Shown here in pieces: positions 18,156 to 64,000 of a DNA stretch of 64,000 nucleotides; the stretch's first letter is position 1; the number at the start of each line of letters is the position of its first letter. The stretch is from Candidatus Woesebacteria bacterium (GTDB lineage: Bacteria > Patescibacteriota > Microgenomatia > UBA8517), in contig CP066693.1 of NCBI GenBank assembly GCA_016432525.1, positions 721,639 to 785,638 on the forward strand, in the 5' to 3' direction. The position numbers were made by a program, and so were the translations under genes. The notes under the pieces were generated by a model, which worked only from the letters and a program-made list of their open reading frames with translations, was not told the origin of the DNA and did not search any database.

Positions 18156-18918
18156 ATCTCTTTAAGTTTACACCCAAAAAAAGGACAACCAAAAAACCAA
18201 TTATCAAAAAGGGTGCAAATGGCAATTTCTGTTTAAGTTTAGCCTTCTTTAATACAATTAAAATTGCTCCAAAAACTCCACCAATAAAGAAAGAAATAAA
18301 AAACCAAACGATAGTATTACTAAATCCAATTACCATTCCAATAAAAAGGGCCAGTTTGACATCTCCAAGTCCCATCCCACGACCCTTCGTTAATAAGTGC
18401 AAAACCAATAAAGATAATGCCGCCAAAGAACCAGACATTAAATAAGAAAAAATATCAGATCTTCCGGTTATCAAAAAACCAATAATCGTAAATAATACTC
18501 CAGCAAATACAATCTCATCTGGAATGATCTGATTTTCCAAATCGATAACAAAGATCGTGATTAAAAATGACTCAACAATAAACAAAAAAGGTAGTTGCAA
18601 AAAAAACAAAGAATTACTCCACTCAAGATTAACGGAAACTAAATTTATTCCTAAAGAAGTTATTAAAAATGTAAGTCCAGCAAAAAGTTCAATAAAGGGT
18701 TCTCTGTATGAAATTTTAACTTTGCAATTCCTGCATTTTCCAGAAAGCAAAATAAATGATAAGAGGGGAATATTATCATACCAGGAAATCTTTTTTTTAC
18801 ACTTTGGACAAAAAGATCTACCTTTGGATATGGGAATACCTCTCGGATATCGAAAGCTAAATGCCCCAATAAAAGACCCAATACAACATCCCAGTATAAA
18901 AACAATTAAGTAAAACAT
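18136..18918 (-). CDS. pilD: Prepilin peptidase (A24 family)
   Basis: CPKC...CRNC zinc-binding tetracysteine. Polytopic membrane protein. Positioned between the major pilin and the minor pilins. Confidence 0.85.
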   Translation of the reverse strand: MFYLIVFILGCCIGSFIGAFSFRYPRGIPISKGRSFCPKCKKKISWYDNIPLLSFILLSGKCRNCKVKISYREPFIELFAGLTFLITSLGINLVSVNLEWSNSLFFLQLPFLFIVESFLITIFVIDLENQIIPDEIVFAGVLFTIIGFLITGRSDIFSYLMSGSLAALSLLVLHLLTKGRGMGLGDVKLALFIGMVIGFSNTIVWFFISFFIGGVFGAILIVLKKAKLKQKLPFAPFLIIGFLVVLFLGVNLKRYVYPWL

Positions 18919-52604: not shown

Positions 52605-53633
52605 TTAACTTCCAATTTTAAATTCCACCACATCCCCATCTTTCATAATATAATCTCTTCCTTCCGATCTCACTTTCCCTTTCTCTCGACAATTTTTCCA
52701 CCCGCCATTTTCTATAAAATCATTGAAATCAACTACATCGGCCTTAATGAATTTTTTAATAAAATCAGTATGAATTACTCCAGCAGCATTTTGGGCATCC
52801 GTGTCCTTTTTTATTGTCCAAGCCCGAACCTCTTTAACTCCAGCTGTCAAAAAAGTAATAAGTCCTAAAGTTTCAAAGGCTTTTTTAGTTAGTCTCTCAA
52901 TCCCCGACTCTTTTATTCCCAAATCTTCTAAATATTTTTCCTGGTCAGCATCTGCTAAATCAGACAACTCAGATTCAATTTTTGCAGAAATTGCAATTAC
53001 TTGATGTACATGAACTCCCAACTTTTGGGCATACTCAATCTCAAGCTTGTTTGCGTTAACTAAATCTCCCTCGTCAACATTCAATACAACTAAATAAGGT
53101 TTCTTTGAAAAAAGAGGTAACTCTTCCTCGTTTTGTTTTTCTTTTTTCTTTTTTTTGTGCTTTTCAGTCATCTCCAAATCAGCAAGATCCAGTTCGGTTT
53201 TTAGAATTTCAAAATCAGATTTGGCCTGCCCACCTACATGCGAAGCTTGCGGCGTGGTGTCAGTTACTCTAATTACATCTTTATCTTTAAATAATCGAAG
53301 GCAAAAACAAATTGCATCCGTCTCACGAATATGGCTTAAAAATTTATTCCCCAGCCCTTCTCCTTTTGAAGCCCCTGCAATCAAACCTGCAATATCTACA
53401 AACTCAACCGTTGCATTAACAACGGGAGGAAGGTCAGTCATTTTCTCAGATTCTTTTGTAACCTCGGCAAGCTGATTTAATCTTCCATCAGGTACTGGCA
53501 CGACTCCAACATTTGGCTCAATTGTTGCAAAAGGAAAATTTGCAGCATAGGCTATCTGTCGCTTTAAAAGAGCATTAAAAAGTGTGGACTTTCCCACATT
53601 TGGAAGGCCTACTATCCCAATCTTCAGTCCCAT
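52605..53633 (-). CDS. ychF: Ribosome-binding ATPase YchF (Obg-family)
   Basis: N-terminus MGLKIGIVGLPNVGKST. C-terminal TGS domain. Confidence 0.9.
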   Translation of the reverse strand: MGLKIGIVGLPNVGKSTLFNALLKRQIAYAANFPFATIEPNVGVVPVPDGRLNQLAEVTKESEKMTDLPPVVNATVEFVDIAGLIAGASKGEGLGNKFLSHIRETDAICFCLRLFKDKDVIRVTDTTPQASHVGGQAKSDFEILKTELDLADLEMTEKHKKKKKEKQNEEELPLFSKKPYLVVLNVDEGDLVNANKLEIEYAQKLGVHVHQVIAISAKIESELSDLADADQEKYLEDLGIKESGIERLTKKAFETLGLITFLTAGVKEVRAWTIKKDTDAQNAAGVIHTDFIKKFIKADVVDFNDFIENGGWKNCREKGKVRSEGRDYIMKDGDVVEFKIGS

Positions 53634-55194
53634 ACTCCAAGTATTGGGTTAACGGTATGTTTATACATGATTCTACCAATCTTCCTTTCTTAATTTGTAT
53701 TTTACTAATTAAATCTCTAAATACCAACTTTTTGTCAGAATAGTCTTGTAAACTTAACACTTTGTTGGCTTTCTGATATAGCTCTTCCACTTCCTCGTTC
53801 GAGATACTACTTTTGATTGAGTTGGTATTATCTAACTCTTTTAATCTTTTGATTAAAACAACTTTCTTATCTTTGGTTTGTTTTATTAGTCCTCTAAGTT
53901 GATCTACATCAATTAAACCTTCTGCGTTCATTTGGGCATATTTCATTTCTTGATTATTTAGATTTAGCAACTTTTCTTTAGTTTCCAATTTTTCATTTTC
54001 TAAAGAAAGATTAACGCTTGATCTGGATTCGGCATATTCTCTAATTTTTCCTTTAATATAACTAGGGTTGGAAATTGTATCTTTAATATTTCTCCACCAT
54101 AAGCCTTCAAGAACATAAACATTGACTCCATCGCAATCACAGGTTCGTAGATCTCTCGGTCGAGCTTTATCACTGCTTCTATAATACCTTTGGGTACCCT
54201 GCGCTCCGTCCCCTACCATTGGGAAGTTGTGGTCACAAAATAATTTTCCTGTAAGTAAATAGTCGTACTTTCTATTTTTACGAGCGAATCTCTTATTCAG
54301 CTTAAGAAGTTCGAGTGATTTATTGTATAAACTTTTATCTTTTATTAAAACTGGAACATCAAAAGGTAACCACTCTTCTCTTGGCCTAGCCTTTCTACTA
54401 TTCTTTTTAACCTTAAAATATTTCTTTACTTTTCTCTCACCCACTACAGCTTCACTTTTATTGTAATAAGCAATTCCAGTAAAATAGGTTTCGCATCTTA
54501 AAATTCTTTCAACTGGGCCTTTCGTCCAAAATCTGCTTTTGCCTTTTTTAGTTGGTATACCAAGATCACTTAATTTCCTTACGATTGAATTAATTGGCAT
54601 TCTTTCAATGACATGCCACCTGAATATTCTCTCAACAACATCTGCTTCTTCGTCATTTACAGTCCAGTGGGTTGGAACCGTTTCAGTTCGTTTAATGTAG
54701 TTGTATCCATATAATGCTTGACCACTAATTACTATCCCATTTTTAGCTTTATACAGCTTACCTCTTCTAAATCTATCTGCAATCTTTATCCTTTCATAGG
54801 CATGGAAACTTCCTAATATGTTTCTAATAAATCCTTGCTCTTCATTTTCAGGATTGATGTCGTGGAGTGATATTAACTTTATGCCAGATTCTTCAATTTC
54901 TTTAATAAGAATAAGTTGATTTGTAAAATCTCTCGATAAACGACCAAGATCATAAACATATATGCGGCTAAATGTTTTACTTTTGATAGCATCACGGAGT
55001 TCATCGAGTGCTGGACGAGCTAAAACAGAGCCAGTCCAGCCATTGTCAATAAATGTATTTGTTTCAGGCAACATGTACTCATCTGCAAGAATAGCTTTTT
55101 TAACTTCTTCAATTTGAGATTCGATTGTCGCTTCCTGTTCTTGTCTGCTCGTTGAAACTCTAACATACAAAGCTGCAGTTTTTGTTTCTATCAT
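53575..55194 (-). CDS. Large serine recombinase (integrase)
   Basis: 539 aa. Resolvase catalytic domain ALYVRVSTSRQ with the Ser nucleophile. Recombinase domain, zinc ribbon, coiled coil. 3' end overlaps the ychF start by 59 nt. Confidence 0.85.
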   Translation of the reverse strand: MIETKTAALYVRVSTSRQEQEATIESQIEEVKKAILADEYMLPETNTFIDNGWTGSVLARPALDELRDAIKSKTFSRIYVYDLGRLSRDFTNQLILIKEIEESGIKLISLHDINPENEEQGFIRNILGSFHAYERIKIADRFRRGKLYKAKNGIVISGQALYGYNYIKRTETVPTHWTVNDEEADVVERIFRWHVIERMPINSIVRKLSDLGIPTKKGKSRFWTKGPVERILRCETYFTGIAYYNKSEAVVGERKVKKYFKVKKNSRKARPREEWLPFDVPVLIKDKSLYNKSLELLKLNKRFARKNRKYDYLLTGKLFCDHNFPMVGDGAQGTQRYYRSSDKARPRDLRTCDCDGVNVYVLEGLWWRNIKDTISNPSYIKGKIREYAESRSSVNLSLENEKLETKEKLLNLNNQEMKYAQMNAEGLIDVDQLRGLIKQTKDKKVVLIKRLKELDNTNSIKSSISNEEVEELYQKANKVLSLQDYSDKKLVFRDLISKIQIKKGRLVESCINIPLTQYLEYGTEDWDSRPSKCGKVHTF

Positions 55195-55358
55195 TATTTC
55201 CCTTCAAATAACTTCTTCAACTTTGCTATATCAACTCTCCAACTATTTCCAAATTTGAAAGCTGGGATTTGGCCTTTTTTGATCATTCGATAAACAGTCA
55301 TTTTATTAACTTTTAGCTTTCTGGCTACTTCGTCTGGTGTTAAGTACTCGTCTTTCAT
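55194..55358 (-). CDS. Excisionase/AlpA-family HTH protein (recombination directionality factor candidate)
   Basis: 54 aa, LTPDEVARKLKVNKMTVYRMIKKGQIPAFKFGNSWRV. Stop overlaps the recombinase ATG (TAATG). Confidence 0.6.
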   Translation of the reverse strand: MKDEYLTPDEVARKLKVNKMTVYRMIKKGQIPAFKFGNSWRVDIAKLKKLFEGK

Positions 55359-55376
55359 ATACTACTTTTACTTACT

Positions 55377-55598
55377 CTAGTTTACTTTTTTTATTGTGTC
55401 AACCCTCTTTTTTTCTCTAATTTCCTTCAAAATTTTATCGAATAAATTGAAGTAAAAATTATTTACTTCTTTTAAATGGTCATCATTTTGTGCAAAATGT
55501 ATTGTGAAGGATAGAGGTCTGATTTTATTCATAGTTCCCTCTTCCCTAATTTGCCTTTCCTTGTAGTATGAAAGGTTATATCTTGACAGGATTGGCAA
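55377..55598 (-). CDS. Hypothetical small protein
   Basis: 73-aa ORF inside the element. Confidence 0.25.
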   Translation of the reverse strand: MPILSRYNLSYYKERQIREEGTMNKIRPLSFTIHFAQNDDHLKEVNNFYFNLFDKILKEIREKKRVDTIKKVN

Positions 55599-55682
55599 AA
55601 ACCTGATATTCCGAATTCTTTTACAGAAAGTTTATCTTTAAAAATAGTTATTTTTTTGTCGCACCAAGAACACACAGATTTT

Positions 55683-57797
55683 TTATTGTTCATTGGCATC
55701 CTTGGGTAGAAGTTCAGTTTGTTTTACTTTTGATTCCGCATTCCGTAATTCATATATACCATTGCGGTTTGCGGAATCATTTGTCGACTCGTTTTTTGCT
55801 AATGAGTAAATATGTGGCTTGGATTTAGTATGAATTACTTCGCCTTCGTTTGTAAGCTCTTTTAATGCAGACTCGACAAGCCTAATGCTACAAATACCAG
55901 ATGCTACAACCAATTCAATAATCTCTGATCTTTTATAATCTTTTTCTCCAAGAATTTGAAGAATATATTCCTTCGCTTCCTCAATTTTGAGTTTATCTGG
56001 TATTTTTTCTTCGTATAGAAATTGGATTTCTCCTTCACCTTGTCTTCTTATGCCAATGAATGGTTTAATCTTTTTCTCTGATTGTTTATTTTTAGTAACA
56101 GATATAACTACTTGGTCAGTGTCTTCCTCTGTTGTTTTTGTAAGAGAAATTACCGTGTCAACTGCTGCTTCCCAGTAATAGCTTCCAACCGCTTCTTCGG
56201 CTTGTCTCCGGCCAAACTTTCTTTCAAGAGCCTGTTCTTTCGACGGATGAATTAGAAATATAAAAGCTAAATTAGGATTACTCTCTCTTAATTCTTTGTA
56301 TTTATCAAAAACCAGTTTTGCATCTTTATCTGTATTGGAATCTTTGTTATGAGTATTTCTTAAAATATCAACAATTACTAATTCAATTTTTTCTTCTGAA
56401 ATTTTATTTTTTACACTTTCAAAGCTACCATTTTGTAGTTCGATAGAAAATGAAGGTAGATTTGAATGATAAATGAATAATGAATCATCAAAATTGAATA
56501 AATTTACTCGTTTCTGAAAATTGCGAGATGGATCGTCATTTGTAACGTATAGAACTCTACTTCTATGTGTTGGAATTTTGTCCCAAAGTGATATTCCTCT
56601 AGTGATACAACTCGCAAAATATAACGCCAACCAAGTTTTGAAAGATTCTCTTTTGGCAACAATTATTGCACTTCCACTACTTGGTATTAGCTCATCAACT
56701 ATCCAGTCAATATCTCCAAATTCTTGTTTTAGAAATTCAGGACCAGTTGGTATCTGAATTGGAACACTTGTAACTTTTTCATTAAGTCCATATCTTTTGG
56801 CTAGTTCCGAAGCTGCTAACGAGAAATTGCCTTTGTGCTTTAATAGTGAAAAAACAGCAAATGGTGTGTATGCTTTGTTTGGCTCAAAAGGAGAACCATT
56901 ACTGGTAAAATTATAGAAAATTCCTGGTGCAATGTGACCAAAAGTTGCTGAAATACCCTTTTCTTTACCAGGTCTCCTAAGAAAAATTGTGTTTGTATTT
57001 TTCTGTTCAAAAACAATCGTCCATCCATTCTGTTTCAAAATTTCTAATGCTTCATCTATTCCATTTTTGTTAAATAGATCCCCCGGACGCTCTCCGTCAA
57101 AATTATTTCCTGAAGATTTAAAATCTTCAGTTGCAATAGGAATAAGGTCGAGCGATCTGGCACATTGGAGTAGTACGTTTCGTTCTTCAGGTGTTATTTG
57201 GGATAAATTACACCAATCTCCCTGAATAAGTTTGTATCCAAGGGTAGGTGAAACTACAAATTGTCCACCAAGACCTCTTGTTTCAATAAAAGTTATTGAT
57301 CTAAGTTTCGGATCTTTTTGTAATTCTTCCTTAGTTGGAAGTCTACTGGCAAGTTTCTGATTTCCCTCTATTTCTTCACACTTCCAGGCTACATGGTATC
57401 CTTCGTGTTGGGTTGTCTCTATAAGAAGTCTGTCAACAAGCCCAGGGCAGATAACATTAACAAGTTTTTCCCAGCTTTCAATAATCTCTTTCGCTCCAAG
57501 ACTCCCATGATTGTCAAAGTCTAAACCTTCCTGATTTCGCAATCCTATACCCCATCTTTTGTTGAGAATACAATCTCTCAATTCTTCTTCTGTAAAGTTC
57601 TTCTTCTCCCAACCTGGAAAGCCAACTGGATATTTTAGTGTTGGATGATCAGGGATGACATCCAAACCGGCTTTTTTATAGGCAAGGGCTGCTTCAAAAA
57701 GTTTATTCATTTCTGCACCTCCTCGTACAGTCTTGATTTTACTGTCCGTATTTGTTGAAAGTATGTTTGAGGTTCTACTCTGATCTTCTTTTGCCAA
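55683..57797 (-). CDS. Replication protein: bifunctional primase-polymerase (Prim-Pol) fused to RecA-like AAA_25/DnaB-like helicase domain
   Basis: N-terminal GLDVIP...WGIGLRNQEGLDFDNH...HEGYHVAW (Prim-Pol). C-terminal Walker A-like region IPSSGSAIIVAKRESFKTWLALYFA. Likely true start at 57710. Confidence 0.75.
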   Translation of the reverse strand: MAKEDQSRTSNILSTNTDSKIKTVRGGAEMNKLFEAALAYKKAGLDVIPDHPTLKYPVGFPGWEKKNFTEEELRDCILNKRWGIGLRNQEGLDFDNHGSLGAKEIIESWEKLVNVICPGLVDRLLIETTQHEGYHVAWKCEEIEGNQKLASRLPTKEELQKDPKLRSITFIETRGLGGQFVVSPTLGYKLIQGDWCNLSQITPEERNVLLQCARSLDLIPIATEDFKSSGNNFDGERPGDLFNKNGIDEALEILKQNGWTIVFEQKNTNTIFLRRPGKEKGISATFGHIAPGIFYNFTSNGSPFEPNKAYTPFAVFSLLKHKGNFSLAASELAKRYGLNEKVTSVPIQIPTGPEFLKQEFGDIDWIVDELIPSSGSAIIVAKRESFKTWLALYFASCITRGISLWDKIPTHRSRVLYVTNDDPSRNFQKRVNLFNFDDSLFIYHSNLPSFSIELQNGSFESVKNKISEEKIELVIVDILRNTHNKDSNTDKDAKLVFDKYKELRESNPNLAFIFLIHPSKEQALERKFGRRQAEEAVGSYYWEAAVDTVISLTKTTEEDTDQVVISVTKNKQSEKKIKPFIGIRRQGEGEIQFLYEEKIPDKLKIEEAKEYILQILGEKDYKRSEIIELVVASGICSIRLVESALKELTNEGEVIHTKSKPHIYSLAKNESTNDSANRNGIYELRNAESKVKQTELLPKDANEQ

Positions 57798-57958
57798 TAA
57801 TTTGTAATTAATTTATCAAGTTCGGAATCTCTTTTGAATATAAAAAGTGATTTATGAAGGTCAATTTTATTTATAGTCTCAATGGGCAAATATAAAGATA
57901 GTGTTACCGCTAAAGCAAGGTCAGAAGTTGTGTAATATTTCTCTTGGTTGATACTCAT
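57707..57958 (-). CDS. Hypothetical small protein upstream of the replication gene
   Basis: 83-aa ORF. Stop abuts the alternative primase start. Confidence 0.25.
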   Translation of the reverse strand: MSINQEKYYTTSDLALAVTLSLYLPIETINKIDLHKSLFIFKRDSELDKLITNYWQKKIRVEPQTYFQQIRTVKSRLYEEVQK

Positions 57959-58077
57959 ATACCGATTATTGGATAAACAAAGTAAGTAGTCACCTTACCA
58001 AGGTAAGCTTTTTGAGGCTGAAGTTGTGCTAATTTATTTTAAAGGTAATATCGGAGTAAGAAAAACAAACTTGGTTG

Positions 58078-58884
58078 TTATCTAATATTATTTGGTTGAG
58101 TCAGAAATTTTAATCTATAGCAAGAAGCTGTGTTGAAACCATATCCTTCATGTACTATCACCCAACGAGTCGTCTTTATTATTTTTATGTTAACTGTGTG
58201 TTTTAATTGCTTAAGGGCTTCTCTTGAACCCAATCCTTTTAATTCAGCAATTTTATGTGGGTTAAGATCAAATAAAATAGTTAGTAAATTAAGCTCTTTT
58301 GCTCCCAATCTTACTATAGATTTTATTCTTGTTAACTCTTTTCCTAATTCTCTTTTAGTCCATCTTTTGCCTGATTGAAATTGGATATTCCCATTACTTT
58401 TTTGCTCTTTAATCAGCCTATCTCTATATTCTTTTAGTTTACTTAGATTAATTTTATGGAAAATCATACTAGAGCCTAAAGGAGTAGCTGGACTTCTATT
58501 AAAATTCTCAAAACAGCCTTCATTTTTAAGTTTGAATAAAAACGCTTCCAATAAATCACGTACTTTAATATGATCTTCAAAGTTAAAGAAATAGTAAGGA
58601 ATACTAAACGAGGTGGGATCATTACCGTTTCCAAGATAAATCGGGCTATCTTTCGCTTCTCTGTGTTCAATAATTAGATTTATAGCATGAAGGTATTTGT
58701 CTTCTTTACTGGCTTGTATTCTGGCATTCTTTGCATCTTCCCTCCGTCTTCTTTCCTCCAAGTCTTGTCTGTGCTCACTTACCCATGTTTCTCTAGCAAG
58801 TCTTTCAAATTCTTCAGTTTTATCAGGAAGAGTTTGTGGATAATAAGCCTGTTTGACTGTAAACCGATTTGTGATCTTGCTCAT
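58078..58884 (-). CDS. Hypothetical protein (element-encoded)
   Basis: 268 aa, charged N-terminus, no recognisable domain. Confidence 0.35.
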   Translation of the reverse strand: MSKITNRFTVKQAYYPQTLPDKTEEFERLARETWVSEHRQDLEERRRREDAKNARIQASKEDKYLHAINLIIEHREAKDSPIYLGNGNDPTSFSIPYYFFNFEDHIKVRDLLEAFLFKLKNEGCFENFNRSPATPLGSSMIFHKINLSKLKEYRDRLIKEQKSNGNIQFQSGKRWTKRELGKELTRIKSIVRLGAKELNLLTILFDLNPHKIAELKGLGSREALKQLKHTVNIKIIKTTRWVIVHEGYGFNTASCYRLKFLTQPNNIR

Positions 58885-58927
58885 TTTAATTTTAATAATG
58901 AGCTGATTATATCAGGAAGAGAGAACG

Positions 58928-59140
58928 CTAAATCAATTCTTTTGGTGAAACTTTTAAGGCTTTCGCTATTTTTACTACTGTATCGGTTGAAGGATTTCTT
59001 TCACCACGTTCAATATATCCTATATAAGCTCTATTTAATCCAGCATCTAAAGCTAATTGTTCTTGTGTAATTTCTTTTCTTTCCCGTATTTTTCGAATGT
59101 TTTTTCCTATCTTTTTAGAAACTGTTGTTACTTTTATCAC
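58928..59140 (-). CDS. XRE-family (Cro/CI-type) HTH transcriptional regulator
   Basis: ITQEQLALDAGLNRAYIGYIERGERNPS. Confidence 0.8.
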   Translation of the reverse strand: MIKVTTVSKKIGKNIRKIRERKEITQEQLALDAGLNRAYIGYIERGERNPSTDTVVKIAKALKVSPKELI

Positions 59141-59203
59141 ACATACAGTTTCTCTAGATCTTTACTAGCAGTCGACTTACTAGTAGTATATATTAAGGTT
59201 TAA

Positions 59204-59446
59204 ATGGATAATATTTTACAAAAAACTATATCTGGAGCAATAGTAGGAATACTCCTATATTTGTGTTGGTATGTTTTACCCCAAATTAAAAAGCGTTGGA
59301 TATTCAAGTTAGAAACTAAACTTAAGCAAAAAGGATTGGAAACACGATATAAAAAACTTCACAAAATTATCAAAACGATTTTGTATATGATTTTAGTGCT
59401 AATGATTATTACTCCAATCATTTTTTTAATTTTTCTAATGTTTTAG
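59204..59446 (+). CDS. Small membrane protein
   Basis: 80 aa, 2 TM. Divergent from the XRE gene. Confidence 0.3.
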   Translation: MDNILQKTISGAIVGILLYLCWYVLPQIKKRWIFKLETKLKQKGLETRYKKLHKIIKTILYMILVLMIITPIIFLIFLMF

Positions 59447-59456
59447 AACATCAATC

Positions 59457-59684
59457 ATGATTAAAATAATATATAAACAAATAATATTGATCTTTTTACT
59501 ACTTCTTCTGGTAGCAATTATTTTTGTGTGGCCTATGTTTGCTAGGAACAATTGTATGAATTTAGTTCAACATGAAATAGATGCTCCCGGTACAGTTGCG
59601 ATAAGCCGATTGAATACCGATTACCGTCTATGTTTAGCTAAACACGGAGTTAAGCCAGAAGCTCTTTTCTCGTCTACACCCTAG
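59457..59684 (+). CDS. Small membrane/secreted protein
   Basis: 75 aa, N-terminal TM. Confidence 0.3.
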   Translation: MIKIIYKQIILIFLLLLLVAIIFVWPMFARNNCMNLVQHEIDAPGTVAISRLNTDYRLCLAKHGVKPEALFSSTP

Positions 59685-59687
59685 CAA

Positions 59688-60104
59688 TTACTGACCAGCA
59701 ATAGGTAATATAGTTCTAATGTGTTCAATCACAGCATGTAATTCAGCATGAACTCCGATATCTATATTGTCTGTTTGAGCGTATTTATTCCTTAATTTGT
59801 AATACATATCAATTGCTCTCGCTTTTACAGACAAATCTGCACTTTGATTAACTAAAAACCAATGTTGAGCTGCCACATTTTCATCATTTAATCCTGATTT
59901 TTCTAGTAAAGAGTTTATATAGGCCAAAATGTGAGGTTTTGTAAGGTTCTCTGAGGCTAGACTTTTGGCCAAGATTCTGTCTGGATGACCATCTTTCTTG
60001 TTTATCCTATACCCTGCCCTTAGAATTGACTCTGTGCCGTTACCTAATGTTTCTATGTAGTGTTGACAGAACAGTTTTTGTTTAATTGTTAACTTGTTTT
60101 TCAT
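59688..60104 (-). CDS. Phage terminase small subunit (Terminase_2-like)
   Basis: LTIKQKLFCQHYIETLGNGTESILRAGY matches the TerS N-terminal HTH region. Confidence 0.7.
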   Translation of the reverse strand: MKNKLTIKQKLFCQHYIETLGNGTESILRAGYRINKKDGHPDRILAKSLASENLTKPHILAYINSLLEKSGLNDENVAAQHWFLVNQSADLSVKARAIDMYYKLRNKYAQTDNIDIGVHAELHAVIEHIRTILPIAGQ

Positions 60105-60167
60105 ATTTTTATTCTAACCTATAGATCAATTATTTGCACATAAAATATCTGATAGAATGGTCTAAAT

Positions 60168-60746
60168 ATGACGATTAGCAAAAGAATGTTTATTGCCCTA
60201 ATTTTATTTGTTATTGCCAGTACAATTGCTTACAAATTAAGAATACAAAACTCAATTGTGAAATCAGAACCAAAAACTGAATTGCTAAATTTTACTCCAA
60301 CTGATTTGCCTGAAAAGAAAGTATTTGGAAGTTGTTGGGTTAATTCATTAGCTTCATCTAATCCAAAAGCATGGAGATGTACAGTTGATCATGGCATTTA
60401 CGATCCATGTTTTGATATCGAAGGAATTGTTGTTGTTTGTGGTGTAAAACCAGGAAGTGAAAATAAAGATAGTTTTATAATTAACCTAACGAAACCATTG
60501 CCTACAAACGAACAAAATAACGACTGGCACCCTTGGATCATGGAACTTTCAAATGGTCTCAGGTGTACCAAAATCACTTGGGCTGCTGATTCTCTTGATG
60601 GAGAATATTATTTCTATATATGTGATAAAGATGAAGCTGTTGTACTGGGAAATATAGATACATCAAATCCTCTTTGGGAAGTAAAAGTTGGTTATCGCGG
60701 CACAACAAAAACGGATCAGTATGATGTAATAAAAGCTTGGAGATAA
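60168..60746 (+). CDS. Secreted Cys-containing hypothetical protein
   Basis: Signal peptide or TM then 8 Cys. No homology recognised. Confidence 0.4.
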   Translation: MTISKRMFIALILFVIASTIAYKLRIQNSIVKSEPKTELLNFTPTDLPEKKVFGSCWVNSLASSNPKAWRCTVDHGIYDPCFDIEGIVVVCGVKPGSENKDSFIINLTKPLPTNEQNNDWHPWIMELSNGLRCTKITWAADSLDGEYYFYICDKDEAVVLGNIDTSNPLWEVKVGYRGTTKTDQYDVIKAWR

Positions 60747-60820
60747 AAACACCTAACTAAATACAAGTAAATAAATAATTTATTTTGATATTTAATTTAT
60801 ATACTAAGCTTAACAATTTA

Positions 60821-61897
60821 TCACACTTGATATTTTTTAATTCCACTCATGTTATTTTGAATATCAACATCAGAAACAATTCCAACACTATACTTTGCCC
60901 TAGTAATGGCAACATAAAACTTTGATCTACTTATAGGAGCTAACTCAGAGTTATTATCTTTGAGCCATTTGATTATTGGCTCTGTTGGATACAAAATTAC
61001 TCTTTCGAACTCTTGACCTTTAGAATCTCCGAAGTTAGCATATTTATATTCCTTATCAATATTTGTTCTTGAATCATTTCGTAATTGGATTGGATTATGT
61101 TTTGAAAGATAGGATTTAACATCTTTGCTTTTTATTACAAATACTCCATCATGACCAGTTTTGCTTGCATTTCCGCACAAAGTTTTCGTGAGATTTGGGT
61201 AAAGTTTGTTCGATAATTCACATATTAAAGTCGAGCTACGATAATTTGTAGTTAACGAAGTAGTATCTGTCTCGATTGTTATTGATTTATCTCCAAAAAA
61301 ACTTAATATATTTGCCCTCTTATATTTTCTGTTTTTAGAAGAGTTGCTTGTGGAATACGTTCCTTGTCTTGGATCACCAACCAAGAGTAAATTAGATTTA
61401 CATTTGAGAAGTAGTTTTAATAATTCTAAATCATATCCTGATAGATCCTGTATCTCGTCAATATAGATATGTTGGTAAATCCTTGATATTCTATTAACTA
61501 CTTCTCCTTTACAACAACTATTACATTTAAGTACAAATTTAGTAAGTTTATCTGAAAATATTCTTTGATTTTTTGTAAAATAATGATTTTCTGTATCACC
61601 TTCAGGAACATAAGGGGCTGATTGAGAACTCACTAAAACCATTCCTTTTATGTCTTTGTCATAAACACTACCCTGATATGGTTTTGCACCATGTTCTAAC
61701 AGAAACGAAAACCATGTCTGAATTGTAATATTCTCTGGAATAAATTTATTAATCTGAATTATTTTCTTACGAATCTCTTTTTCATTTGACCGAGTATATG
61801 TAGTTATTAAAACATTTTCGTCCTTGCAAACTAGTGCACTTTTAACTAAAAAAGTAGTTTTCCCTGATCCCGCTGCACCTATAACCAACTTGTTCAT
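60821..61897 (-). CDS. Short UvrD-like SF1 helicase (GajB-like partner of OLD nuclease)
   Basis: 358 aa. Walker A IGAAGSGKTT, Walker B YIDEIQDLS, motif VI-like YVAITRAK. 8 nt downstream of the OLD-family gene. Confidence 0.65.
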   Translation of the reverse strand: MNKLVIGAAGSGKTTFLVKSALVCKDENVLITTYTRSNEKEIRKKIIQINKFIPENITIQTWFSFLLEHGAKPYQGSVYDKDIKGMVLVSSQSAPYVPEGDTENHYFTKNQRIFSDKLTKFVLKCNSCCKGEVVNRISRIYQHIYIDEIQDLSGYDLELLKLLLKCKSNLLLVGDPRQGTYSTSNSSKNRKYKRANILSFFGDKSITIETDTTSLTTNYRSSTLICELSNKLYPNLTKTLCGNASKTGHDGVFVIKSKDVKSYLSKHNPIQLRNDSRTNIDKEYKYANFGDSKGQEFERVILYPTEPIIKWLKDNNSELAPISRSKFYVAITRAKYSVGIVSDVDIQNNMSGIKKYQV

Positions 61898-61905
61898 GTT
61901 TATTT

Positions 61906-63567
61906 TTAACTAATAGCATTGAGAATATATTGTGGAAATTTGATCGATTCTTTGGTATCAAATATTGCTAATGCACATTCGGTTTTATTTCCTTTCATAT
62001 ATGTTAATAGCTCACTGTCTGTTTTGAATTGTTTTCCAAAAACTTTATTTAATATTTCCAGGCTGTTTACTTTAAGTAGTTTTGGCTCAAGCGTATTGTA
62101 GTTAAATGTTGAACCATTAATCATTGGTCCCGTATCTACAGTGGCACTAAAGCAAATTTTGATTTTAGACTTAGTTTTAGATCCAAGATAATTTTCATAC
62201 TTTTTATTTAAAGAATTTACATCTCCATCATTGTCTGTAACAACTATTACTTGCTGATCTATCTTTTCAGCAATTTCTAAAAATCTTAAAAACGAAGTCC
62301 CTACAGAAATTACATCTAATCCGTCTTCTATTGGAAGTTTTTTGTAACTCACCAAATATGCCTTTTGTACTGCCAACTCGTCCGAGTCACCTTCAACCAA
62401 AATAGCTTTTTTACATAGAACAAGCCTGAGTGTGTCATATCCAGGAATTTTTTCAAAGAATTTGTAGGTATCGGGACTCAATTCGGTAAGCGGAATTGTT
62501 TTCCTTTCTTTGAGTAGGGTTAAACTTTCTAGACCTAATTTATTTGCTACAAAGCTACTATGCGTAGTTACTACTATTTGTTTTCCCTCACAATCATCTT
62601 TAATGTCATTTATAAATTGATTAAGTTTTGTATGGGAAAGATGATTTTCTGGCTCCTCTAATAATATTAGATTGGCATATTGGCTTTTTCCGTTACTTAG
62701 CGCAAGTTTGGTTTTTATAATACACTGTTCTCCTTTCCCGATTTGCTGGAACGGAACATCGTCCAAGTATGCCATTAAACTACTTTCCCATGCATTTTTT
62801 GGGGTTAAATCAACTGATAATTTTAGTTCCTTTTTTGAAATATTTGTTGCATTTTTTATTTTTGTGTTGATATTCACAATAGGGGTCTCTGAGAGGAAAA
62901 ATTCTTGCATTTTTCTAAGGGTTTGTGAAATACCTACCATATCTTCATTTTCTAGGTGATTTCTCAATATATAAGAAATATAAATATCCGAACCGTTCTG
63001 GTAACGATAACTCGAAGAGTCGATTAAGGCTGATTTAATTGGAACGCTTGTTGATTTTGTAATTGGTCCTCTAGCACAATCATTCCATTCAACTTCGTAA
63101 TATTCAGTTGGAATATTTTTAACATTTCCGCCTTTGATAAATTCAGCATATTCACCTTTATATTTATCATTGAATGCTATTTTCATTGAAACACAACATT
63201 CTTTCTTCTTTTCAGAATTGCCGTCTCCTTCAAATGAAGGTAGTTCGTCTCCCGCTATAAACACTTCGATTAGTATGTATGGAGGTATTGCTCCTGTACC
63301 AGCAGTTTTAATATATTCAGCGACGACCTCGTTGTTAAAAAGGTTTTGGCTCAGTTCGTTTTTAATATAATGTCCATTTATTAATCCTGTAAGAGCTAGG
63401 TGAATTGCTTCTAAAATAGTTGACTTTCCAGTTTCATTGTCTCCAACCAATATATTAAGACCTTGTTTTAATTTAAGATTAAATTTACCCTTGAAACATT
63501 TGAAGTTTTCGATATTAACTTCTTTTATATAAATTGTAGAATCTTTAGAATTCATTTTTTGTTGCAT
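61906..63567 (-). CDS. OLD-family ATP-dependent endonuclease (ABC-type ATPase + Toprim), GajA-like
   Basis: 553 aa. N-terminal Walker A VGDNETGKST, D-loop ILLEEPENHL, H-loop TTHS. C-terminal Toprim LVEGDSDE ... VVTDNDGD. Confidence 0.8.
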   Translation of the reverse strand: MQQKMNSKDSTIYIKEVNIENFKCFKGKFNLKLKQGLNILVGDNETGKSTILEAIHLALTGLINGHYIKNELSQNLFNNEVVAEYIKTAGTGAIPPYILIEVFIAGDELPSFEGDGNSEKKKECCVSMKIAFNDKYKGEYAEFIKGGNVKNIPTEYYEVEWNDCARGPITKSTSVPIKSALIDSSSYRYQNGSDIYISYILRNHLENEDMVGISQTLRKMQEFFLSETPIVNINTKIKNATNISKKELKLSVDLTPKNAWESSLMAYLDDVPFQQIGKGEQCIIKTKLALSNGKSQYANLILLEEPENHLSHTKLNQFINDIKDDCEGKQIVVTTHSSFVANKLGLESLTLLKERKTIPLTELSPDTYKFFEKIPGYDTLRLVLCKKAILVEGDSDELAVQKAYLVSYKKLPIEDGLDVISVGTSFLRFLEIAEKIDQQVIVVTDNDGDVNSLNKKYENYLGSKTKSKIKICFSATVDTGPMINGSTFNYNTLEPKLLKVNSLEILNKVFGKQFKTDSELLTYMKGNKTECALAIFDTKESIKFPQYILNAIS

Positions 63568-63600
63568 TTTTAAAAATCTACTTCAAACTATTTTCATGTT

Positions 63601-63999
63601 TTAATTTTTACTAAACTTTTTCACCGCATCCTTAAACATAGCATTCCCTGTCATATTCCATTTAACATAATTAGTAACTTCACTAGCGGGAACAAATCTT
63701 CTCTCCCAAATATCACCGTTATCTGGATCTGGAGTTTGGGGGAGTAATTCATCAATTTCACAAATACATCTAACTTGGTAAATAAATTCATTTGGTTTCT
63801 CTTTTGGGTATGCCTTTTGAATTCCAAGAATTTTAATATTTTTGACTTTTACATCAACTTCTTCAACCATTTCCCTTTCCAAAGATTGTTCTGTGGTTTC
63901 ACTCTTTTCAGGATGTCCACCAGGAATTTGCCATTCGCTATCTTTATTTCTTCTGCAAATTAAAATCTCATTTTTGTCATTAAAACAAATTCCATACAC
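63601..63999 (-). CDS. NUDIX hydrolase
   Basis: Nudix box GGHPEKSETTEQSLEREMVEEVDV. 33 nt upstream of the OLD gene on the same strand. Start may lie beyond the window edge. Confidence 0.8.
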   Translation of the reverse strand: MYGICFNDKNEILICRRNKDSEWQIPGGHPEKSETTEQSLEREMVEEVDVKVKNIKILGIQKAYPKEKPNEFIYQVRCICEIDELLPQTPDPDNGDIWERRFVPASEVTNYVKWNMTGNAMFKDAVKKFSKN

Positions 64000-64000
64000 T

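Follow-up and report, generated by a model that had tools for sequence, protein, structure and literature searches.

A putative two-gene Gabija system of the short-helicase subtype in a ~10-kb satellite-like insertion of a Woesebacteria genome

A gajA-gajB pair in a 64,000-nt stretch of a Woesebacteria (CPR) genome (hereinafter designated the window) very probably forms a self-contained two-gene Gabija system of the subtype with a 2B-less helicase, located at the distal end of a ~10-kb satellite-like element inserted between a NUDIX hydrolase gene (hereinafter designated NUDIX2) and ychF. An initial annotation had described three minus-strand genes with gaps of 8 and 33 nt and treated them as one operonic unit. 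The open reading frame calls reproduce the layout (60821-61897, 358 aa; 61906-63567, 553 aa; 63601-63999, truncated by the window end; 8 nt between gajA and gajB and 33 nt from the NUDIX2 stop to the gajA start), while conservation is limited to the GajA-GajB pair. The features discussed below are as follows.

52605..53633, minus strand: host ychF GTPase, on the opposite flank of the insertion; 77% identical to ychF of the related locus L084
53575..55194, minus strand: large serine recombinase (integrase); Pfam Resolvase and Recombinase, PHROG 95 integrase (E 1.9e-72)
55194..55358, minus strand: small HTH_17 protein, excisionase/RDF-like; PF12728 HTH_17 (18210-18374 on the longer contig L001)
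55683..57797, minus strand: prim-pol/AAA_25 replicase; Pfam AAA_25 (E 1e-21), weak Prim-Pol, PHROG 19930 DNA polymerase/primase (E 2.6e-34)
58928..59140, minus strand: HTH_3 (Cro/CI-type) regulator; Pfam HTH_3 (E 2e-18), PHROG transcriptional regulators
59688..60104, minus strand: small terminase subunit-like protein (terS); PF03592 Terminase_2, PHROG 51 terminase small subunit (E 1.8e-16)
60821..61897, minus strand: gajB, minimal SF1A UvrD-like helicase/NTPase, 358 aa; 8 nt downstream of gajA
61906..63567, minus strand: gajA, class 2 OLD-family nuclease, 553 aa; PADLOC, Pfam, alignment and fold search
63601..64000, minus strand: NUDIX2, NUDIX hydrolase, 3' part only; Pfam NUDIX (E 6e-16), the gene running past the window end

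Positions on contig L001 convert to the window as 73568 minus the L001 position. The NCBI start of gajA lies 11 codons downstream of the one used here and yields a 542-aa protein.

The GajA and GajB proteins

Both proteins match curated Gabija profiles of PADLOC over their full length, and their genes are adjacent: GajA matches PDLC00102 (E 1.3e-211, residues 13-552 on profile positions 2-529 of 532) and GajB matches PDLC00148 (E 6.1e-131, residues 2-356 on positions 3-365 of 369). Together with 8sm3_A, the top fold match of the GajA model in the PDB, these matches support the proposal that the OLD-type ATPase/Toprim protein and the UvrD-like helicase constitute Gabija, and the families that the initial annotation had named for profile searches (AAA_15/AAA_21, an OLD Toprim, UvrD-helicase and NUDIX) are all recovered.

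GajA carries Pfam AAA_15, AAA_21, SMC_N and PF20469 OLD-like_TOPRIM (residues 385-447, E 4e-10), in the order N-terminal ABC ATPase head, helical insert and C-terminal Toprim. Across 22 family members the ATPase motifs are invariant (Walker A, G42-S49; signature, G277-Q281; Walker B region, E304-H309; H-loop, H336), as are the Toprim residues E392, G423 and D445/D447. Domains and motifs thus bear out the ABC ATPase head and C-terminal Toprim first read from the 553-aa sequence and speak against an SMC/RecF-type protein without Toprim. The AlphaFold model is of moderate confidence (mean pLDDT 69, below 50 in the helical insert at 165-270), and its top PDB fold match is B. cereus GajA (hereinafter designated BcGajA; 8sm3_A, E 6.9e-15). 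Single-sequence phmmer searches of the PDB with GajA and GajB recovered zero Gabija entries, and BcGajA was not listed at E<=1e-3 when the PDB was searched with the GajA family profile; the apparent kinship of GajA to BcGajA is drawn from the fold search and the PADLOC models.

GajB contains Pfam UvrD-helicase and UvrD_C, and every one of its helicase motifs is conserved without exception across the family alignment: I (A8-T14), Ia (T32-T35), II (D147-D151), III (G174-Q178), IV (N218, R220), V (G290-F297) and VI (V329-A334). With motifs I-VI in place, III-VI included, its description as a minimal SF1/UvrD helicase holds. The core comprises 1A-1B-2A, and the UvrD 2B domain is absent, because residues 239-268 of the query span UvrD residues 308-547; the C-terminal half counts 118 aa, compared with ~250 aa in B. 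cereus GajB (hereinafter designated BcGajB). A PDB search with the GajB family profile recovers BcGajB (E 4e-8), profile positions 4-240 aligning to BcGajB 11-245, and the GajB model (pLDDT 81.6) finds UvrD/PcrA and GajB 8tk1_F as fold matches.

The helicase had been remarked on as about 130 aa below typical GajB. The shortness itself is confirmed (~136 aa below the 493-499 aa B. cereus chains in the PDB), but it is no oddity: 347-390 aa is the norm in a short-helicase subfamily of thousands of members, for which the PADLOC profiles have 365-369 positions. The absence of 2B is a subtype difference common to the whole PADLOC-modelled subfamily, and the classifiers do not rely on this domain. 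By the same comparison the locus is a routine member of a short-helicase Gabija subtype already catalogued in the PADLOC models, and nothing substantive sets it apart. What stands out is the subfamily: very large and spread across phyla, it appears uncharacterised, structural and mechanistic work having all been done on the 2B-containing B. cereus system, and we know of no 2B-less member that has been challenged with phage. At the family level, the 2B-less subtype might be regulated otherwise than B. cereus Gabija, since the rotating 2B domain is missing.

A mechanism can be proposed by analogy with B. cereus Gabija, which in fold alignments is only 13-15% (GajA) and ~20% (GajB) identical to the proteins described here. 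Assembly of GajA with GajB would run through region 1B of the helicase; the Toprim nuclease of GajA would cut or nick invading DNA as nucleotide pools drop; and GajB would bind DNA ends, hydrolyse (d)ATP/(d)GTP and reinforce activation. Such a system would protect the host and thereby the carrier element too.

The insertion and its satellite-like element

The ~10 kb between NUDIX2 and ychF (~53.6-63.6 kb of the window) most probably represent an insertion, because in a related genome a single gene separates the NUDIX orthologue from a downstream ychF-rpsF-ssb-rpsR series, in an order that is collinear with the window. In that genome (L084), the distance from the NUDIX2 orthologue to ychF is 585 nt, with one 194-aa gene in between, and collinearity with the window extends more than 8 kb past ychF, the genes downstream of ychF being S6-SSB-S18-S41 peptidase-RF-L31-HisRS. 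L084, L107 and L108 all show the NUDIX2 orthologue followed by one to three unrelated genes and then ychF. The relatives that show such empty-site equivalents are no closer than 64-77% identity at the protein level, and the insertion boundaries are placed to within a gene. The serine recombinase occupies the ychF-proximal end, its final 59 nt overlapping the start of ychF; no direct or inverted repeats of at least 11 nt are shared between the two junctions, as expected for serine recombinases.

Known from its gene content alone, the element combines an integrase, a replication module and terS without structural genes (Pfam and PHROG searches gave no capsid or tail matches), from which we infer a satellite-like nature. 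These gene annotations and the flanking synteny agree with the phage-satellite-like island proposed at the outset. The terS-like gene is in itself a satellite-like hallmark. A divergently oriented gene of 192 aa (60168-60746) lies between terS and gajB; the idea that it is homologous, in inverted orientation, to the 194-aa gene of the L084 NUDIX2-ychF interval was rejected, since the two have no BLASTP similarity. Neither the replicase nor the recombinase of the element has a relative among the viral contigs searched.

Whether gajAB arrived with this element is less firmly indicated than the identity of the pair. It is conceivable, at clearly less than even chances, that gajAB entered the NUDIX2-ychF interval independently and is adjacent to the serine-recombinase element without being its cargo. 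The interval does look like a variable spot, because each of the related genomes L084, L107 and L108 differs in content there; the divergent 192-aa gene parts terS from gajB, and searches turned up no related element with gajAB. Pointing the other way, a low GC of 0.29-0.33 runs continuously over terS, gajB and gajA, though it also extends into the host NUDIX genes, and satellites and integrative elements commonly bear defence cargo at their ends. On the reading that we favour, in which gajAB is cargo at the distal end, a CPR genome has acquired Gabija in a ~10-kb insertion of which the satellite-like element with its serine recombinase is also part.

Distribution of the pair and the place of NUDIX2

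Homologous GajA loci were compared from 80 species: in 79 of them GajB is encoded next to GajA and in the same direction, and the remaining locus stops at a contig edge. Viral and proviral contigs show this pairing too, at identities as low as ~28%. What lies upstream of gajA is far less constant: 84 Pfam families across 74 loci, each in three or fewer, mostly restriction-modification (R-M), AbiEii and integrases, a heterogeneity typical of defence islands. The closest homologue (72%) adjoins an R-M cluster. GajAB is horizontally mobile across phyla, with a patchy occurrence at 60-72% identity among CPR, Bacteroidota, Bacillota, Campylobacterota and archaea.

It is improbable that the OLD-UvrD pair is a DNA-repair, replication-maintenance or element-selfish module (serving, for instance, to stabilise a plasmid or satellite or to exclude competing elements) rather than an anti-phage system, labelled Gabija by PADLOC only for its models' coverage of all class 2 OLD pairs. 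The distance from the B. cereus system that has been tested (13-15% identity, no PDB Gabija from single-sequence searches), the location of gajAB on a mobile element and a 2B-less subfamily in which, to our knowledge, no member is phage-tested would fit such a module. Phage P2 Old, the founding member, works in inter-phage exclusion (PMC10781630), which could likewise be taken in its favour. Yet in other genomes defence genes make up the great majority of the neighbours (MmeI/Eco57I, type I R-M, AbiEii, C5 and N6 methylases), the patchy cross-phylum spread at 60-72% identity is typical of defence rather than of housekeeping repair genes, and architecture and active sites agree with Gabija.

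The inheritance of NUDIX2 follows a different course. The full gene on contig L001 (9470/9491-9967; 158 aa as called, 165 aa from the first ATG) is preceded, all co-directionally, by a second NUDIX gene (NUDIX1), an alpha/beta hydrolase and a cytidine deaminase. Its orthologues are confined to Patescibacteria/Microgenomates, where the alpha/beta hydrolase-NUDIX2 pair is kept in L091 and L096 and NUDIX2 stands upstream of ychF in L084, L107 and L108. GajA or GajB was found in none of 89 loci with a NUDIX2 orthologue, and an adjacent NUDIX gene in none of the 79 other species-level loci with GajA-GajB and none of 35 viral or proviral ones. A NUDIX frame within 6 kb of GajA occurs in one Saccharibacteria lineage only, at a distance of 2.6 kb and not within the mobile block that the loci share; its presence upstream in L055, L172 and L173 does not count as conservation, because these three, 92-99% identical in DNA, are a single lineage, and the block that they share with L048, L052 and L053 starts after the NUDIX gene. 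By this comparative genomics, NUDIX2 is vertically inherited in Microgenomates, a host housekeeping gene flanking the insertion and not a third Gabija component. The initial annotation had cast it as a functional front gene and had proposed a survey of NUDIX-gajA-gajB synteny; in that survey the homologous loci have no NUDIX adjacency, and the synteny of L084, L107 and L108 puts the gene outside the element.

NUDIX2 was also considered as a defence gene through the PADLOC candidate PDC-S07. The match is weak and partial (44 bits), confined to the NUDIX-box region, and the unrelated NUDIX1 matches equally. A literature search for a link between Gabija and NUDIX found no paper.

With NUDIX2 as a host gene, its 33-nt spacing from gajA would be a consequence of where the element or its cargo landed, and read-through transcription from the host would at most contribute to gajAB expression. 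A stronger version, in which gajAB is under read-through from a hydrolase-NUDIX1-NUDIX2 operon and the NUDIX enzymes incidentally modulate the nucleotide pool that gates GajA, would amount to a recent lineage-specific coupling and not a conserved system; we regard it as very unlikely. A consensus scan for promoters and terminators across NUDIX-gajA-gajB returned fewer sites than shuffled controls. Least probable of all is that NUDIX2 acts as a functional third gene of a Gabija variant, tuning the nucleotide pool or degrading a signal that gates the GajA nuclease: co-orientation with gajA across only 33 nt, the lack of a terminator-like site between them in that scan, the weak PDC-S07 match and the inhibition of GajA by NTPs, as reported in a preprint (bioRxiv 10.1101/2023.05.02.539174), would fit it, but the model is largely refuted by the adjacency counts (0/79, 0/35 and 0/89, with the single Saccharibacteria case 2.6 kb off), by the vertical descent of NUDIX2 with the hydrolase upstream of ychF against a GajAB mobile across phyla, by the equal PDC-S07 match of NUDIX1 and by the absence of any paper found on such a link. 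As the locus neatly illustrates, a short gap to the neighbouring gene at an insertion border should not be mistaken for membership of one operon.

Comparison with known systems

The Gabija system of B. cereus VD045 (PDB 8sm3, 8j4t, 8tk0/8tk1, 8x5i) is likewise a two-gene operon with gajB directly downstream of gajA. Its GajA has the same ABC ATPase, helical insert and Toprim with Glu, Gly and DxD, and the BcGajA Toprim residues E379, G409 and D432/D434 match E392, G423 and D445/D447 here in spacing (PMC10781630). BcGajB, too, belongs to the SF1A helicases and shares the DEXQD box and motifs I-VI; its residues 11-245 are collinear with the N-terminal 240 residues here, including 1B, the GajA-contact domain in B. 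cereus. The two systems differ in sequence, at the low identities given above for fold alignments, and in the ~130-aa 2B domain of BcGajB, which rotates in the complex and is missing from GajB here. The B. cereus proteins assemble into a 4:4 hetero-oligomer; the present locus is known from its genes and from monomer models.

Closer in size are the PADLOC profiles for GajA (PDLC00102/PDLC00098, 532-534 positions) and GajB (PDLC00148/PDLC00140, 365-369), whose lengths equal those of the proteins here, and the PADLOC Gabija subfamily comprises thousands of homologues with the same lengths and pairing. The ATPase plus Toprim architecture is also shared with phage P2 Old and with Thermus scotoductus OLD (PDB 6p74), which we take to be a class 1 OLD; 6p74 is the best OLD sequence-profile match in the PDB (E 8e-10) and the third fold match for GajA. 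Class 1 OLDs are single proteins without a helicase partner (PMC10781630), whereas GajA here has an obligately linked UvrD-like partner, as in class 2.

PICI-like and P4-like satellites likewise carry an integrase, an excisionase-like HTH protein, a prim-pol/helicase replicase, a Cro/CI-type regulator and a small terminase only, lack capsid and tail genes, and have a defence system at one end. The present element, assigned to satellites by gene content only, differs from them in its serine rather than tyrosine integrase and in its CPR host, and neither att sites nor a helper phage nor relatives were found for it. For the 2B-less helicase, a parallel is found in DarH of DarHTG, likewise a UvrD-family core without 2B that serves as a defence component; its partner is DarT/DarG, compared with an OLD nuclease here, and the likeness is one of domain make-up. 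Rep does not need 2B to act as a helicase (PMC13069673 and its reference 59).

Identity and layout of the gajA-gajB locus

Three minus-strand ORFs are present as the initial annotation described, with intergenic gaps of 8 nt (gajA-gajB) and 33 nt (NUDIX2-gajA), the third being incomplete in the window:

60821-61897, minus strand, gajB ORF (358 aa)
61906-63567, minus strand, gajA ORF (553 aa)
63601-63999, minus strand, ORF of NUDIX2, the NUDIX gene directly upstream of gajA, truncated where the window ends

By exact-protein match the same locus was located on L001, a contig of 39 kb (window position = 73568 minus L001 position); the full NUDIX2 there measures 158 aa in the gene call, or 165 aa if counted from its first ATG. 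Co-directional upstream of it are genes for a second NUDIX protein (NUDIX1, 188 aa), an alpha/beta hydrolase (248 aa) and a cytidine deaminase (163 aa). Beyond the window end, L001 7680-9967 is a close-packed host string of cytidine deaminase, alpha/beta hydrolase, NUDIX1 and NUDIX2, followed by gajA; a divergent Pol-beta-type nucleotidyltransferase gene lies upstream of the string. NCBI lists an identical GajA encoded on a 916-kb contig that belongs to a Candidatus Woesebacteria MAG, which bears out the CPR setting. The NCBI GajA has 542 aa, with its start placed 11 codons past the first ATG (window 63535-63567), and GajA family alignments start near residue 10-14; if real, the downstream start would make the NUDIX2-gajA spacer 66 nt, not 33 nt.

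The ABC ATPase head and C-terminal Toprim ascribed to the 553-aa protein were recovered in Pfam (AAA_15/AAA_21/SMC_N and OLD-like_TOPRIM), as were UvrD-helicase and UvrD_C in the 358-aa protein, read earlier as an SF1/UvrD helicase. The active sites are intact: GajA Walker A G42-S49, signature G277-Q281, E304-H309, H336 and Toprim E392, G423 and D445/D447 are invariant in the family alignment, as are GajB helicase motifs I, Ia, II (DEIQD), III, IV, V and VI. The Gabija-type assignment holds in PADLOC, where both proteins match their models end-to-end (GajA, PDLC00102, E 1.3e-211, residues 13-552 on 2-529/532; GajB, PDLC00148, E 6.1e-131, residues 2-356 on 3-365/369). Searches with both proteins returned thousands of homologues of equal lengths and 60-72% identity in CPR, Bacteroidota, Bacillota, Campylobacterota, Nitrospirota, Proteobacteria and archaea. 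By these sequence criteria, gajA-gajB is an unremarkable example of a Gabija subfamily that is known and already covered by models.

The NUDIX gene viewed from both sides

Across 80 loci from different GTDB species (GajA 56-67% identical), a short GajB lies directly downstream and co-oriented in 79, the remaining locus stopping at a contig edge; the pairing is obligate. All 3430 ORFs in the 6-kb flanks were screened by NUDIX-box regex, by a NUDIX HMM and by phmmer from ten diverse NUDIX seeds; this detected one NUDIX ORF only, in L055, 2.6 kb upstream of gajA and not adjacent, and no NUDIX adjoining gajA in the other loci. Of the NUDIX-gajA-gajB synteny sought in related genomes, only the gajA-gajB pairing is kept; NUDIX adjacency is absent from the homologous loci, the outcome under which the initial annotation itself would regard the gene as coincidental cargo. 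Among viral or proviral loci, 2 of 35 (L172 and L173) likewise carry a NUDIX 2.6 kb away, and these and L055 represent one Saccharibacteria lineage, since their DNA is 92-99% identical. The block common to this lineage and three other Saccharibacteria loci starts 165 nt past the NUDIX gene. L055 (5983-7638) has gajA broken into separate ORFs of 162 aa and 355 aa, reflecting either recent pseudogenisation or an assembly error; it is intact (551 aa) in the 99%-identical proviral L173 (5983-7638).

The genes directly upstream of gajA in 74 loci span 84 Pfam families, each in at most 3 loci, and are mostly restriction-modification (R-M) enzymes, AbiEii and integrases; the nearest homologue (72%) adjoins an R-M cluster. 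Such neighbourhoods are typical of defence islands in many phyla. Upstream genes in L002-L081 and L171 frequently encode large single-chain enzymes of the MmeI/Eco57I type, type I R-M enzymes, AbiEii, C5 methylases or NERD/UvrD proteins.

Viewed from the other side, NUDIX2 orthologues were found in Patescibacteria only, and GajA or GajB is near none of them (0/89 loci, 48 with at least 1.5 kb of downstream sequence). Elsewhere the orthologues sit amid nucleotide-housekeeping genes (other NUDIX, NTP_transf_2, CYTH, HD, pyrophosphatase). In contig L084 a single unrelated 194-aa gene lies between a NUDIX2 orthologue (64% identical) and the host GTPase gene ychF (77% identical). Past ychF, the order S6, SSB, S18, S41 peptidase, release factor, L31, EamA-family gene and HisRS is collinear with window 53633 down to 44063. 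In L107 and L108, 1-3 unrelated genes separate NUDIX2 from ychF, and the content of this interval differs in each of the three contigs:

L084 8518-9102, 194-aa gene of no assigned family
L107 1167-3675, His_Phos-like 215-aa gene plus 386-aa and 203-aa genes of no assigned family
L108 5886-6488, 200-aa hydrolase-like protein

In Microgenomates this interval appears to be a variable hotspot for integration. Together with the alpha/beta hydrolase-NUDIX2 pair kept in L091 and L096 (79-85% identity), this synteny identifies NUDIX2 as a vertically inherited host gene and the ~10 kb between NUDIX2 and ychF in the window (about 53634-63600) as an insertion. The proposal that NUDIX is a functional front gene of the system is thus contradicted independently by the forward survey, the reverse survey and the synteny, and the association is a positional coincidence at an insertion border. 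Lineage-specific coupling of NUDIX with gajAB, via read-through transcription or the nucleotide pool, is highly improbable.

The inserted element

The insertion (about 53634-63600) contains:

large serine recombinase (PHROG integrase, E 2e-72)
HTH_17 gene
prim-pol/AAA_25 replicase
DUF5659 gene
HTH_3 regulator
small-terminase-like gene (terS)
several ORFs without a family match
gajB and gajA, at the far end

Domain and family searches placed no structural phage genes among the annotated genes, so that 'phage-satellite-like integrative element' is a fair description, in keeping with the island first proposed. No att repeats were found at the junctions, nor are they expected for serine recombinases, and searches of viral contigs with its replicase and recombinase found no relatives of the element. 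A separate insertion of gajAB into the same variable NUDIX2-ychF interval, rather than carriage as cargo of the recombinase element, is possible but rather unlikely. Within the 33-nt NUDIX2-gajA gap the insert could hardly accommodate a promoter of its own, and gajAB could plausibly be expressed from a putative promoter in the 3' end of NUDIX2 or by putative host read-through.

With its final 59 nt (window 53575-53633) the recombinase ORF runs into the start of ychF, whose N-terminus aligns with orthologues from residue 1, suggesting that the recombinase frame may cross the integration junction into host DNA. The product of a divergent 192-aa ORF between terS and gajB (60168-60746, plus strand) begins with a hydrophobic helix and contains several Cys; it matched nothing in Pfam, PHROG or PADLOC and is not similar to the product of the L084 gene in the corresponding place. 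The stretch from the HTH_3 regulator to terS also contains, on the plus strand, two short ORFs of strongly hydrophobic sequence (80 aa, 59204-59446; 75 aa, 59457-59684), which have no family matches and could encode holin-like or membrane proteins.

Comparison with B. cereus Gabija

Kinship to the characterised B. cereus system is distant. Single-sequence searches with GajA or GajB recovered no Gabija chains in PDB; the GajB family profile matches BcGajB (E 4e-8). The top PDB fold match of the GajA AlphaFold model (mean pLDDT 69) is BcGajA (8sm3_A, E 6.9e-15, 14% identity); further Gabija entries and Thermus OLD (6p74) rank next, and the GajB model (pLDDT 81.6) matches UvrD/PcrA and GajB 8tk1_F (20% identity). 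Toprim E392, G423 and D445/D447 follow one another in the same order, and similarly spaced, as E379/G409/D432/D434 in BcGajA (PMC10781630).

In the profile alignment, GajB residues 4-240 are collinear with BcGajB 11-245, an N-terminal half that includes the 1B domain, the site of GajA contacts in the B. cereus complex (PMC10781630). Residues 239-268 bridge D. radiodurans UvrD 308-547, which identifies the ~130 aa missing relative to BcGajB as the 2B domain. The length deficit remarked on in the initial annotation is therefore real, but it is not peculiar to this locus, being common to the subfamily (347-390 aa) and built into the PADLOC profiles. UvrD-like helicases without 2B are already known from other defence systems, and Rep helicase activity does not need 2B (PMC13069673).

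By analogy with B. cereus Gabija (PMC10781630 and other published work), GajA and GajB would form a complex via the helicase 1B domain, GajB would be a DNA-end-stimulated (d)ATP/(d)GTPase and the GajA Toprim nuclease would act on invading DNA once nucleotide levels drop. Because 2B is absent and identity is low, the regulation of this pair may differ in detail from that of B. cereus Gabija.
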